This document shows, piece by piece, positions 3,827 to 28,274 of a stretch of DNA of 46,281 bases (its first letter is position 1; the number at the start of each line of letters is the position of its first letter). The notes beneath the pieces were generated by a model. The model did no database searches. It was not told the DNA's origin and worked only from the letters and a program-made list of their open reading frames with translations. Both the position numbers and the translations under genes were made by a program. Source of the DNA: Planctomycetota bacterium (GTDB taxonomy: Bacteria; Planctomycetota; Phycisphaerae; UBA1845); the NCBI GenBank assembly GCA_022562105.1, contig JADFPW010000001.1, forward strand, positions 1 through 46,281, written 5' to 3'.

Positions 3827-4606
3827 CTAGACGCCTACGATGTTGTAGCCGGCATCGACGAAGATGTTCTCGCCGGTGACGCCGCTGGACAGGTCGCTGG
3901 CCAAATACACTGCGGTTTTTCCTACTTCGCCCGGCTCGATGTTGCGGCCTAGCGGGGTCTTGTTGGTGCAAATCTCCATCATCTCCTCGATCCCGCCGAC
4001 GGCCATGGCTGACAGCGTCCGCAACGGGCCGGCGCTGATCGTGTTGACGCGGATCCCGCGCGGACCCAGTTCAACAGCCAGGTAGCGTGTGATGGCCTCC
4101 AGCGCCGCCTTGGCCACGCCCATGACGTTGTAACCCGGGATAACCTTCTGGCTGCCGTAGTAGGTCATGGCCATGATCGACCCGCCGTGGGGCATCATCT
4201 CCTTGGCACGGTTGGCCATGGCCAGCAGGCTGTAGGCGGAGATGTCCAACGCCTGGGCGAAGGCGTCTCGCGGCGTATCCACAAACTTGCCGATCTTGAG
4301 GTGGGCCCGCTCGGCGTAGGCGACCGAGTGGACCAGGAAGTCGATCGAATCGAAACGCTCCCTGGCGGCCGCAAAGGTGGCATCAAGGCTTTCGTCGCTG
4401 CAAACATCGCACGCCATCAGCCCTGAGTCCGAGAGGTTTTCCGCCTCCAGCGCCTTCTTGACCCGATGAAGATTCTTGTCGCCGGGCATGTAGGCATAGC
4501 CACACACCGCCCCTTCGGCCGTGAAGCTCTTGGCCACGTGCAACGCGATGCTTCGATCGTTGGCTATTCCGAAGATCAGCCCCTTTTTGCCGTCCAATAG
4601 TCCCAT
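3827..4606 (-). CDS. fabI: enoyl-[acyl-carrier-protein] reductase (NADH) FabI
   Basis: 259 aa. N-terminus MGLLDGKKGLIFGIANDRSIA. SDR fold with the Y...K catalytic region and a GENIFVDAGYNI C-terminus, typical of FabI. Confidence 0.93.
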   Translation of the reverse strand: MGLLDGKKGLIFGIANDRSIALHVAKSFTAEGAVCGYAYMPGDKNLHRVKKALEAENLSDSGLMACDVCSDESLDATFAAARERFDSIDFLVHSVAYAERAHLKIGKFVDTPRDAFAQALDISAYSLLAMANRAKEMMPHGGSIMAMTYYGSQKVIPGYNVMGVAKAALEAITRYLAVELGPRGIRVNTISAGPLRTLSAMAVGGIEEMMEICTNKTPLGRNIEPGEVGKTAVYLASDLSSGVTGENIFVDAGYNIVGV

Positions 4607-4654: not shown

Positions 4655-4685
4655 AATCAACAAAAACCCGGTCCGGCGACCGGGT
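4655..4685 (-). terminator. Rho-independent terminator candidate downstream of the DUF3179 operon
   Basis: On the minus strand: ACCCGGTC-GCCG-GACCGGGT (8-bp GC-rich stem, 4-nt loop) followed directly by TTTTTGTTG. Confidence 0.6.
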
Positions 4686-4763: not shown

Positions 4764-4825
4764 CTTGTGGTGAGTGCTAATGACCATTCAAGCGTCGTAC
4801 AGACGCGCCAACTGAAACCTCGACA

Positions 4826-4886
4826 TTCCGAGCCGCGACCGTGAGGGAGTGGGCCTGAAAACCGCTTCCTTAGGGGCGCGGCTCGG
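4826..4886. repeat. REP-like hairpin, family B (imperfect arms)
   Basis: Left arm TCCGAGCCGCGACCGTGAGGGAG (4826-4848). Right arm CTTCCTTAGGGGCGCGGCTCGGA (4864-4886). Same core (CCGAGCCGCGACCGTGAGGGAG) as copies at 15547, 32929 and 40533. Confidence 0.75.
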
Positions 4887-4891
4887 ATTGG

Positions 4892-5506
4892 TTAGCGTCC
4901 TGTGGGCTTGGCTCGACGATTTCCTGTGCTCAGGCAGTGGCTGCAATCGAGCACCTTGGTGTCCGGATGACGCTTGTGCCATTCATCCCAACGAATCCCG
5001 GCCTCGAACGCCTCGGGTGGCAGCTTTTTGAGGGTCTGACCGGTCAGTGGGCCGGCCAGGGCTTCCCCTGTTTCCTGCAGCCAGAGCGTGCCGGTCTTCA
5101 CGTCGTACATGATCAGGTTGCCGTTCTTGACCTTCCCGGAAACGCGCAGGGTGGCCTCACCGTCAGCGAGTCTGCGATCGTGAACCACGATCGATTGCTC
5201 GCTCGGTCACCACGAGGCGCTGATCGGAATCCCTCCGACGCGGTCGTTGACGATCTGGTGGTTGTTCAAGATGTAGAGCGGATAGGCCCGGGCTTCGCCT
5301 CCGATGAAGACACCGATCACCTTCGTTCCCGGAGCGATGATGGCGTCCTCGGCCGACACCAGAACCGGATCGACGATCGCCTCCTTGGCATCGGGGGCGC
5401 GGTATTGGATCGGCTCGGTGTAGGGTTGGCCACCCGTACGCGTTAGATCCTGCTTGGGATCGTGACAGCCCGCCAGTGCGAACCAGCGCATGACGCGACG
5501 ACCCAC
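4892..5506 (-). CDS. DUF3179-family protein with in-frame TGA (5207-5209); candidate selenoprotein, alternatively a pseudogene
   Basis: ORFs 5207..5506 and 4892..5188 share one frame and are separated only by TGA. The joined sequence ...EARAYPLYILNNHQIVNDRVGGIPISASW[TGA]PSEQSIVVHDRRLADGEATLRVSGK...LIMYDVKTGTLWLQETGEALAGPLTG...HPDTKVL matches the DUF3179 pattern as I recall it. Possible lipobox FALAGC at the N-terminus. Confidence 0.6.
5165..5203 (-). promoter_or_regulatory. SECIS-like stem-loop starting 3 nt after the in-frame UGA
   Basis: RNA sense: UGA CCG AGCGAG-CAAU-CGAUCGUG-GUU-CACGAUCG-CAGA-CUCGCU. This gives a 6-bp lower stem, a 4x4 internal loop, an 8-bp upper stem, and an apical loop beginning with G. 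Confidence 0.55.
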
Positions 5507-5522: not shown

Positions 5523-7286
5523 TCATGGTGATTTATCCCCTACCGGACCAGGTTCCACTAATCTTAACGTCTGATTCGCCGTCACGTTCGCCTGGGATTG
5601 TATTTTTCCGCATGGCCACCGGATTTCGACACGGGAGGCGCGTTCGGCGTCTCCCAGGCCGAAATGGAGCGTCTTGGAATGTCCGCTAAGGTAGCCGCCG
5701 CCGATCAAGAGTTCTCGCATCTGCACCGGCTGACCGTCCACGTGCACCGACACGCGGGCGTTGGCGGCGTCGCGGTTGCAGTGGCGACCTTCCAGATCGA
5801 TATTCAACCAATGGCCCACATTCTTCGAGACGTTGCGTAGCAGAGCCGGCGATCCGCCGTGGTTGTTGATGGCTAGATCCGGTCGGCCGTCCCCGTCGAA
5901 ATCCGAGACCGCCCCACCGCGACCGACATGGGTCTCGTCGAAATAGGGCCCGGCGGCCGCTCCGAGACGGTGCCACCGTTTGTCACTGCGTCGTTCATAA
6001 ATCTGAGAGCGTTGGGGCAGCATTTTGGGATTCGTAAGAACCTCCAGGGTCAGTTCGTCCTCGATGGTGCTGCCGTACACCACGAACAGGTCGCGATCCC
6101 CGTCGTTGTCGAAGTCCTCGAAACCAGCCGCCCATCCCACCAGGTCTAGATTGCTCTTGCGGAGTCCGACGGCTGGTGACCGGTCCTCGAAGAGCAGGGC
6201 GCCTTCCAGCGATTCGTTCACATAGAAGGCTGGATCCTCGGCCACCCAGTGGGTGACCAGGAAGTCCTGATCCCCGTCGGAGTCGAGATCGACGATGGCC
6301 ACTCCCATGCCGCCGCGCGGGTCGAATACGCCGGAGACTATCGCGACGTCTTCAAACGTCCCGTCGCCCTTGTTGCGGAACAGGCAGTCCAACGATTGAT
6401 CGTTGGAGACGAACAGATCGATCGCTCCGTCGTTGTCGAAGTCGCACCAGACGGCCTGCATGCTGCGTCCATGGGCGGCTGCTGTCCCGGAGATTTCCGT
6501 GACGTCTCGAAACGTCCCGTCGGGCTCCTGGTGAAACAGGTGATTCGGCAACGGCGGGTAATTCCCCGGCGTGGTCATCGGCGCCGGTCGCCCAGCCACC
6601 AAGGGGCGCGTGCGAGCCTTGGCTATGGGAAAATCAACATAGCGACAAAGATAGAGGTCCAGGCGACCGTCGCCGTCGTAGTCGCCCCAGGCGCTGCCCA
6701 GGCAATAGTCCGTCACACCGCCCAGTCCGACCATGTCGGTGACGTCGCGGAAGCGCCCGCCATCATTGCGAAACAGATTCACGCCTTCCAGATGGGTGAC
6801 CAGCAGATCGTCGTCGCCGTCGTTGTCGAAGTCCACGAACACCGCAGCCATGTCCATGCGCGACCGGGTCAACCCTGCGGCCTCGGTCACGTCGGTAAAC
6901 CGGCCGGCGCCGTCGTTGCGCCACAGTCTGCTACCCGGCAGTTTGTTGCGCTGGGTGGCATCCATAAGCAACGGCCCGTTCAGGTTGCACAGGTACAAAT
7001 CGTCGTCCCCGTCGCTGTCGTAGTCGCCCCAGGCGCAGCCCGAGCCGTTGTCCTCCGGAACCAGCGAAGCCCGCGTTTGACCGTTGAAGTGAACGAACCG
7101 CGGGAGGCTGGAGGCTGGGATCCTCTCAAATCGGATGGTCGGTGAGTTAGGCACCTGGCTTGGCGCCTGTTGGGCGGTCGTCGGCACGGTGAGCACCGCG
7201 GCGATGGCCAGCACGTACCCGCAGACCCTGCCCGTTGCAGGTTTCCAGGTTGTTCCGTCCCGTTTCGTCGCCAATTTCGCAACCAT
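5523..7286 (-). CDS. CRTAC1-family protein (FG-GAP/VCBS repeats plus ASPIC/UnbV C-terminal domain), secreted
   Basis: 587 aa with a signal-like N-terminus. Repeated DxDxDGDxD motifs (GDYDSDGDDDLYL, VDFDNDGDDDLLV, CDFDNDGAIDLFV, SDFDGDGRPDLAI). C-terminus NARVSVHVDGQ...GGGYLSGHSKTLHFGLG...VEIRWPCG is typical of UnbV_ASPIC. Confidence 0.85.
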   Translation of the reverse strand: MVAKLATKRDGTTWKPATGRVCGYVLAIAAVLTVPTTAQQAPSQVPNSPTIRFERIPASSLPRFVHFNGQTRASLVPEDNGSGCAWGDYDSDGDDDLYLCNLNGPLLMDATQRNKLPGSRLWRNDGAGRFTDVTEAAGLTRSRMDMAAVFVDFDNDGDDDLLVTHLEGVNLFRNDGGRFRDVTDMVGLGGVTDYCLGSAWGDYDGDGRLDLYLCRYVDFPIAKARTRPLVAGRPAPMTTPGNYPPLPNHLFHQEPDGTFRDVTEISGTAAAHGRSMQAVWCDFDNDGAIDLFVSNDQSLDCLFRNKGDGTFEDVAIVSGVFDPRGGMGVAIVDLDSDGDQDFLVTHWVAEDPAFYVNESLEGALLFEDRSPAVGLRKSNLDLVGWAAGFEDFDNDGDRDLFVVYGSTIEDELTLEVLTNPKMLPQRSQIYERRSDKRWHRLGAAAGPYFDETHVGRGGAVSDFDGDGRPDLAINNHGGSPALLRNVSKNVGHWLNIDLEGRHCNRDAANARVSVHVDGQPVQMRELLIGGGYLSGHSKTLHFGLGDAERASRVEIRWPCGKIQSQANVTANQTLRLVEPGPVGDKSP

Positions 7287-27755: not shown

Positions 27756-28274
27756 GTGGTTCAGTTTTGCATTTTCGGCGGCCATGATGGCGAGCTTCGG
27801 CCCGAACAGCGGGTGTTTTTCACCATGTTCGGGGGCTGTGAGCTGAAGCGGCCGACGCTGGGACGGCAATTGGTCGCTCGGCACGAGAGGGAACGATCGG
27901 GCATCCCACCGCGCCGGCCGCAGGTTATCGTGACCATCTTCGGCGGCACGGAGATCACCCACCCGACGCTGGCCGAGGAGTTCCTCGATCTGAACGAGTT
28001 GACGGCCAAGGGCAAGGTGTCCAGCGCCGACTGCGAGCGGTACTTCGCGGAGCTCGATCAGGGGGACGCCGTAGATCTGACCACCATCACGCTGTTTGGG
28101 AGCTTCGAGGGCGCGTCGGTACCCAGCGAGAATGCGGAGGTCGACGCCTTGGCCCTGCACCGCCATCTGGGCAACATCTCCGACCGCAGCGGCGAGGTGT
28201 TACAACTCGGAATCGGCCTGACCGGCGCCGAACGCCGGGCCATCCTGCGCCAGGCCGTCGGCGTCACGGGCTGA
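27756..28274 (+). CDS. hypothetical protein with four xhFGGxE repeats (possibly LiaF/DUF2154-like)
   Basis: 172 aa. GTG start 8 nt after GGAGG. Repeats are CIFGGHDGEL, TMFGGCELKRP, TIFGGTEITHP and TLFGSFEGASV. Confidence 0.5.
   Translation: MVQFCIFGGHDGELRPEQRVFFTMFGGCELKRPTLGRQLVARHERERSGIPPRRPQVIVTIFGGTEITHPTLAEEFLDLNELTAKGKVSSADCERYFAELDQGDAVDLTTITLFGSFEGASVPSENAEVDALALHRHLGNISDRSGEVLQLGIGLTGAERRAILRQAVGVTG

Follow-up and report, generated by a model that had tools for sequence, protein, structure and literature searches.

A predicted bacterial SECIS element within a DUF3179-family coding region of a Planctomycetota bacterium

The elements of Escherichia coli fdhF and fdnG are the studied prototypes of the bacterial selenocysteine insertion sequence (SECIS), the coding-region stem-loop that lies 3' of a UGA decoded as selenocysteine (Sec), and the minimal E. 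coli element is reportedly a 17-nt upper stem-loop placed about 11 nt from the UGA. The general bacterial model (bSECIS) of Zhang & Gladyshev 2005, in the form given in Fig. 2 of PMC13188914, has an apical loop of 3-9 nt on an upper stem of 4-16 bp, a G within the first two loop positions that is usually followed by G or U, a spacing of 16-37 nt between the UGA and the loop, and a minimum free energy (MFE) of at most -7.5 kcal/mol. Among the prokaryotic selenoprotein families, DUF3179 is catalogued with a UxxC/T motif in the reviews PMC9312934 and PMC13188914, where it is credited to Zhang & Gladyshev 2007. None of the papers that we found to mention DUF3179 addresses its function, and we found no account of a single-lobe subfamily. 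Here we analyse a hairpin that follows an in-frame UGA in a 46,281-nt stretch of a Planctomycetota bacterium (Phycisphaerae, UBA1845; assembly GCA_022562105.1, contig JADFPW010000001.1, positions 1 to 46,281), referred to below as the window. The hairpin is very probably a canonical bacterial SECIS element inside a DUF3179-family coding region, and the gene represents a single-lobe form of the family.

On the minus strand, positions 5209..5165 read TGA-CCG-AGCGAG-CAAT-CGATCGTG-GTT-CACGATCG-CAGA-CTCGCT. This is exactly the layout of UGA, stem arms, 4x4 internal loop and GUU loop that had been described in a first-pass annotation made from the letters of the window alone, and the TGA, called in-frame there as well, sits between two open reading frames (ORFs) of the same frame (Table 1). 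In RNAfold the MFE and centroid folds both coincide with this layout (6 bp, 4x4 internal loop, 8 bp, 3-nt loop), and the energy is -22.6 kcal/mol. The stem-loop thus occupies 5203..5165 of the coding sequence, directly after the in-frame UGA; its lower stem begins 3 nt, its upper stem 13-14 nt and its apical loop 21 nt downstream of that codon. When 151 nt of context were folded, the total energy was ordinary (z = -0.32) and the centroid still contained the hairpin. Since TGA is the ordinary stop of 9 of the 24 long ORFs in the window, recoding at this site is local and the genetic code is standard; a global reassignment of TGA (genetic code 4 or 25) is ruled out by the same count. Two other minus-strand candidates for genes with an in-frame TGA in the window, at 28060 and 35165, were dropped, as their translations look off-frame.

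The upstream ORF terminates in ...GGIPISASW directly before the TGA. Joined through this codon, the two ORFs encode a protein of about 200 aa, starting at GTG 5506 or ATG 5491 and ending at the TAG at 4894..4892, which matches PF11376 (DUF3179) with E = 4.1e-41 and 141.8 bits against a cut-off of 27. The match covers profile positions 6-149 of 292, i.e., one lobe. In the alignment the window protein finishes after HPDTKVL with a C-x-H-C, and the second lobe and the FWFAW end that complete the full two-lobe architecture (length 292) are absent. In 17 full-length homologues the aligned position of the UGA is taken by the first Cys of the (Y/W/F)CPL(C/T) motif. The gene resembles the DUF3179 selenoproteins of the UxxC/T type in belonging to the same Pfam family and in placing Sec at the first Cys of CPLC.

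Comparison was made with 17 distinct orthologous loci from metagenome-assembled genomes (MAGs) of Phycisphaerae/Planctomycetota, one bin labelled Acidobacteriota, and marine-sediment metagenomes, which together with the window form an 18-sequence clade. Two further Sec clades comprise seven loci, namely two-lobed forms with a UPLC motif (L016, L017 and L024) and marine single-lobe forms from TARA samples (L025-L028). The sequence TGG-TGA-CCN is present in 17/17 orthologous loci, and TGA is also kept in the seven loci of the other clades. Downstream of it the frame is open for about 92-130 codons or to the contig end in every one of the 17, with a peptide that begins U-P-S-E-Q-x-I-V-V-H-D-R-R...; the marine clade reads SY-U-SSEQ-x-LVVHER around Sec. 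Pairwise substitutions at codon positions 1/2/3 amount to 0.29/0.21/0.54 downstream of the UGA and 0.22/0.14/0.55 upstream, a coding pattern which indicates that the sequence after the UGA is translated. Automated annotation gives two separate genes in every database record, which is how the locus would look if the TGA were a true stop in a split or decaying gene, or between two small genes, with the hairpin incidental or serving as a terminator or attenuator. We consider this hardly credible and the least probable of the alternatives. The TGA and the frame are kept in 24 loci of three clades with no other disruptions, the downstream part is protein-constrained and carries a conserved C-x-H-C, and neither half makes up a complete DUF3179 lobe by itself. 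Moreover, no U-tract follows the hairpin, and terminator-like sites lie farther on (minus strand, 4832..4819 and, with a T-run, 4685..4666).

Each of the 18 sequences of the clade has the upper stem, with 7 bp in every case and the eighth pair in 13. Sixteen of them have a GUU loop and two a GUC loop, and pairing holds in 96.5% of cells. RNAalifold likewise gave a consensus consisting of the 7-bp upper stem, with the lower stem not included. In the lower 6-bp stem 58% of cells are paired. Of its six pairs just the central three recur often, in columns that are constrained at the amino-acid level as well. As a conserved element the lower stem is thus ruled out by its pairing rate and its absence from the consensus. 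The first-pass annotation had tied its proposal to conservation of the hairpin wherever the TGA is kept, and this expectation was borne out for the upper stem, in 18/18 sequences and in two more clades, and not for the lower one.

Constraint on the upper stem extends to sites that are silent in the protein. Synonymous divergence was taken as the fraction of same-amino-acid sequence pairs with unlike codons. Its level over the gene is about 0.5, and its deepest minimum, 0.06, coincides with the six codons from +5 that form the stem. The stem codons ATC (17/18), GTG (18/18), CAC (18/18) and GAT (17/18) are nearly or fully fixed, while the same residues are encoded by mixed codons elsewhere, and divergence at third positions is 0.098 in the hairpin codons versus 0.54 downstream. 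At codon +5 the amino acid varies (S/G/T/A/K), yet 18/18 sequences have G as the third base, the one that pairs in the stem. The frozen synonymous sites and the fixed G at codon +5 imply a constraint on the nucleotides beyond the needs of the peptide.

The two sister clades carry comparable hairpins with different letters. In the UPLC clade the element is CGGGCGU-CGUGU-ACGUCCG, in a register identical to that of the window's hairpin, a likeness that all three two-lobed members share. In the marine clade it is CGCUCGU-CGUGC-ACGAGCG or CUCGUG-GUU-CACGAG. In a 23-sequence alignment of the three Sec clades, pair 22/36 is A-U in 16 sequences, G-C in three and C-G in two and is broken in none, and pair 23/35 is U-A in 19 and G-U in two. 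These are the compensatory changes in TGA-keeping orthologues that had been proposed as a check on the hairpin. The A-U to G-C change also occurs within the window's own clade, in L004 alone. Across the three clades pairing holds in 94% of cells, compared with 4-52% for controls with slid partners, and none of 500 shuffles reached the observed covariation score. The inner stem C-G-U / A-C-G, the loop GU (columns 28-29, in all 23 sequences) and the distance between UGA and loop are invariant across the clades. Such a conserved apical GU, held at a constant distance, agrees with what one would expect of an element recognised by SelB.

The fit to the bSECIS model, another check proposed at first pass, was assessed by scripting the constraints published in PMC13188914, and 18/18 sequences fall within all four (GUU/GUC loop, 7-8-bp stem, 21-nt spacing), with an MFE of the 19-nt core between -8.6 and -11.6 kcal/mol across the window's clade. 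The sister clades have either a 5-nt loop (CGUGU/CGUGC) on a 7-bp stem or a 3-nt loop on a 6-bp stem, at a spacing of 20-21 nt; the core of one marine variant folds at -6.9 kcal/mol, and at -11.8 kcal/mol with its flanks. The element thus shares with the bSECIS consensus its place in the coding sequence 3' of the Sec-UGA and a small loop with an initial G followed by U, and it shares with the E. coli elements that the upper stem-loop alone is the conserved core. Unlike in E. coli fdhF, to which its sequence is unrelated, the upper stem is a perfect helix without a bulged U. The loops differ within the family as well, being a GUU triloop in the window's clade and a CGUGY pentaloop in sister clades.

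Homologues with Cys at the recoded position offer a contrast. Among 5.8 billion protein clusters, the matches included about 45 proteins of 109-163 aa whose last residues are in every case '...SASW', directly before the TGA, as well as full-length homologues of about 300 aa and about 40% identity that have (Y/W/F)-C-P-L-(C/T) at the UGA site. At the three loci of the Cys type examined (L019-L021) no comparable hairpin follows the Cys codon, so that these do not show the shared hairpin that had been named at first pass as a possible refutation. When the post-UGA half was searched against 1.84 billion representatives, all matches of at least 50% identity were fragments of 57-130 aa that start after the UGA. 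No Cys-containing short-form orthologue was found among the 5.8 billion clusters or the 1.84 billion representatives, and from these sequences Sec appears to be fixed in the short-form subfamily.

Several observations weigh against the SECIS interpretation. The hairpin taken as a single sequence is only moderately unusual (z = -2.56, with 3/200 shuffles folding equally well), and among the window's 1269 TGA triplets, 3.9% precede a hairpin of at least 8 bp with bSECIS geometry. The argument of the first-pass annotation that a structure so regular is unlikely to be incidental thus fails at the level of the single sequence; it is the comparative data, rather than structural regularity, that give the hairpin its significance. 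No Rfam SECIS family was found in the window at the gathering score or in 800 nt around the site at E <= 10, the latter search giving only chance matches of miRNA or snoRNA type. To our knowledge Rfam contains no general bacterial SECIS model, and because of this apparent lack we do not count the null result as a rejection.

The comparative evidence has limits of its own, as most stem pairs are invariant, so that direct covariation rests on two pairs, and part of the stem conservation overlaps a conserved peptide (I/L-V-V-H-D/E-R). Invariant pairs are by themselves uninformative on pairing and the amino-acid identity over the stem is high (0.88), which leaves room for the view that the hairpin is a by-product of self-complementary codons for I-V-V-H-D-R and has no function as RNA. 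This view is very improbable, slightly less so than a true stop, and both are already disfavoured. Synonymous sites are frozen in this part of the gene only, and unusual GAT and GTT codons are fixed despite a 63% GC genome (the GC content of the window is 63%). Where the peptide does change (I to V/L, D to E, and SGVVYVR in the UPLC clade), the two arms co-vary and pairing is kept, and the behaviour of codon +5 described above, with its varying amino acid and constant pairing base, points the same way.

The last group of objections concerns the inserted residue. Binding of SelB and incorporation of Sec are inferred here by analogy with Sec decoding of the E. coli type. Neither the 46-kb window nor the fetched loci yielded selA, selB, selC or selD: ARAGORN detected no tRNA-Sec in the window and 20 loci, and a Pfam scan of 22 long ORFs of the window returned housekeeping genes and no SelA, SelB or SelD. 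Some Planctomycetes are reported to have the full Sec machinery (PMC4807772). The comparative data demonstrate read-through and a functional hairpin, not the identity of the residue, and with the machinery unseen in these sequences the hairpin could promote recoding of the UGA to something other than Sec, by near-cognate read-through (Trp, Cys, Arg), by SelB-like delivery of Cys on a tRNA(Sec)-like tRNA, or by Cys made on tRNA(Sec) under selenium scarcity. We regard such recoding as improbable, if the likeliest of the alternatives. The UGA stands at a Cys position of a CPLC motif of redox or metal type in a listed selenoprotein family, the loop GU and the spacing fit the bSECIS model of the SelB type, and TGC or TGT would be expected in some orthologue if Cys were intended, whereas none was found.

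If the hairpin acts as a SECIS element, decoding would proceed as follows. With the UGA in the A site, the mRNA just downstream would occupy the mRNA channel of the ribosome, and the upper stem-loop would stay folded at the channel entrance. SelB-GTP carrying Sec-tRNA(Sec) would bind the apical GU loop and the upper helix and deliver Sec, outcompeting release factor 2, after which 104 further codons would be translated. The product of about 200 aa, probably lipid-anchored and exported, would carry Sec in place of the first Cys of CPLC. The non-conserved lower stem would be melted within the ribosome during decoding, and we infer that it is unconserved because it starts so close to the UGA that it must unwind there. 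If roughly a dozen nucleotides past the UGA sit inside the ribosome at that stage, conservation of the upper stem alone would be expected.

Table 1. Features of the predicted selenoprotein locus in the window
Feature	Position	Strand	Remarks
Predicted single-lobe DUF3179 selenoprotein gene, read through UGA	4892..5506	-	two ORFs joined; PF11376 match
In-frame UGA, predicted Sec codon	5209..5207	-	in frame between ORF 5506..5207 and ORF 5188..4892
Conserved core of the predicted SECIS	5193..5175	-	upper arms 5193..5186 / 5182..5175, GUU loop 5185..5183
Lower stem, 5' arm AGCGAG	5203..5198	-	folds in the window; largely specific to the window's lineage
Lower stem, 3' arm CUCGCU	5170..5165	-	outside the RNAalifold consensus; largely specific to the window's lineage
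Lipobox-like L-A-G-C	5465..5476	-	Cys invariant, Gly nearly so, in 48 N-terminal sequences
C-terminal C-x-H-C (C-S-H-C)	4934..4945	-	both Cys kept in 17/18 orthologues
FG-GAP / UnbV_ASPIC repeat protein gene	5523..7286	-	Pfam FG-GAP_3 3.8e-41, UnbV_ASPIC 2.3e-20

Compared with the UxxC/T type, the window clade differs in several respects: it has U-P-S-E at the Sec site, it consists of the first lobe only, and it has added a C-x-H-C, a lipobox and an UnbV_ASPIC neighbour. The motif is U-P-S-E in the window and its orthologues (U-P-S-D in L004) and U-S-S-E in the marine clade, so that the fourth position of the window clade is Glu or Asp and not the Cys or Thr of the published motif; no evidence was found that UxxC/T defines the Pfam family PF11376. 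The C-x-H-C recurs in the divergent marine clade and in C-terminal fragments from the databases. Judging by this conservation it may be the partner of Sec, as a resolving cysteine or a metal ligand, and the resolving or ligating role may have moved to it from the second Cys of CPLC, which is now Glu. The sole orthologue without it is L004 (JBCDKB010000708.1, the bin labelled Acidobacteriota), which reads ...LTDSHLAG... and has a longer acidic tail; a related database fragment, P0082, reads CAHC. The L-A-G-C that closes the signal peptide, a lipobox match read by eye, suggests an exported lipoprotein. The signal peptide of the window protein is unusually short, with 13 residues from GTG 5506 or 8 from ATG 5491, and the start codon is uncertain because of this.

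The database records of the family contain many partial proteins. Entries P0001-P0055, P0079-P0087 and P0228-P0237 are N-terminal (about 120 aa) or C-terminal (about 80-130 aa) halves that are annotated separately and labelled as hypothetical or DUF3179 proteins. A further group, P0088, P0089, P0093, P0163 and about 60 alike, consists of proteins of about 235 aa that begin after the CPLC position (MYVRP..., MYARE..., VYSRR...). By their starts, these are probably the post-UGA ORFs of two-lobed Sec-containing DUF3179 forms, and if so, the use of Sec in DUF3179 would be widespread and commoner than annotated. One protein of 1587 aa, P0078, contains three tandem DUF3179 units (CPLC, CSNC and CPNC) with interspersed repeats that resemble fibronectin type III on visual inspection.

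A search by sequence in the PDB gave no relative. The AlphaFold model of the Cys homologue P0006 (predicted local distance difference test score, pLDDT, 95) consists of two repeated beta-rich lobes, and in Foldseek one lobe repeatedly matches Rieske [2Fe-2S] ferredoxins and oxygenase domains with a probability of 0.9-1.0 and a target template modelling (TM) score of about 0.5. The E values are weak (0.01-0.3, none at or below 0.001), and the ligand pattern is not the Rieske CxH...CxxH. The CPLCG and C-x-H-C motifs bear a possible resemblance to the Rieske CPCHG and CxH boxes. We treat the Rieske-like likeness of the model as a lead only and do not claim membership.

An orthologue of the FG-GAP/UnbV_ASPIC gene lies directly upstream of the Sec-DUF3179 gene in 13/13 loci with enough upstream sequence, and it is found in the third clade as well. 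It occupies 123-743 in L018, 5693-7351 in L022, 874-2688 in L023 and 707-2464 in L025/L026, loci that span two clades. The two genes often share a 4-nt overlap. They are a conserved two-gene unit and are probably co-transcribed; neither of them is covered by an NCBIfam model. On the other side, a few bases past the stop codon, a long GC-rich hairpin lies at about 4826-4887 on the minus strand (-36.9 kcal/mol over 96 nt, z = -2.1). Of the two terminator-like sites mentioned above, the stem at 4685..4666 precedes an enoyl-ACP-reductase-like gene (3827..4606, named by eye).

The mechanism described here is textbook, DUF3179 is already a listed selenoprotein family, and the current understanding of Sec decoding is unchanged by these results. 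The novelty is modest and lies in the single-lobe U-x-S-E subfamily with its C-x-H-C, lipobox and UnbV_ASPIC neighbour, which appears to be undescribed. For annotation, the consequence is that a protein of about 200 aa is restored once the Sec codon is recognised; public MAGs and metagenomes list this gene, like dozens of its orthologues, as two truncated hypothetical proteins. Bacterial SECIS elements are hard to model and differ between gene families, and the present family provides three clades with a fixed register and compensatory changes.

The architecture of the subfamily and its conserved gene partner are the sole parts of this work that may lead to something new. The fixation of Sec, the C-x-H-C and the constant UnbV_ASPIC neighbour provide a testable functional hypothesis for DUF3179. 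We speculate, as an idea with a small chance of being right, that the single-lobe U-x-S-E...C-x-H-C proteins could be a distinct, undescribed group of periplasmic seleno-lipoproteins, in which Sec would join the C-terminal Cys/His/Cys in a single redox or metal centre, perhaps built on a Rieske-like scaffold, with the FG-GAP/UnbV_ASPIC protein as an obligate partner. If true, marine and sediment Planctomycetota would have a new selenoenzyme system, and the proteins would be more than a Sec variant of a generic domain of unknown function.

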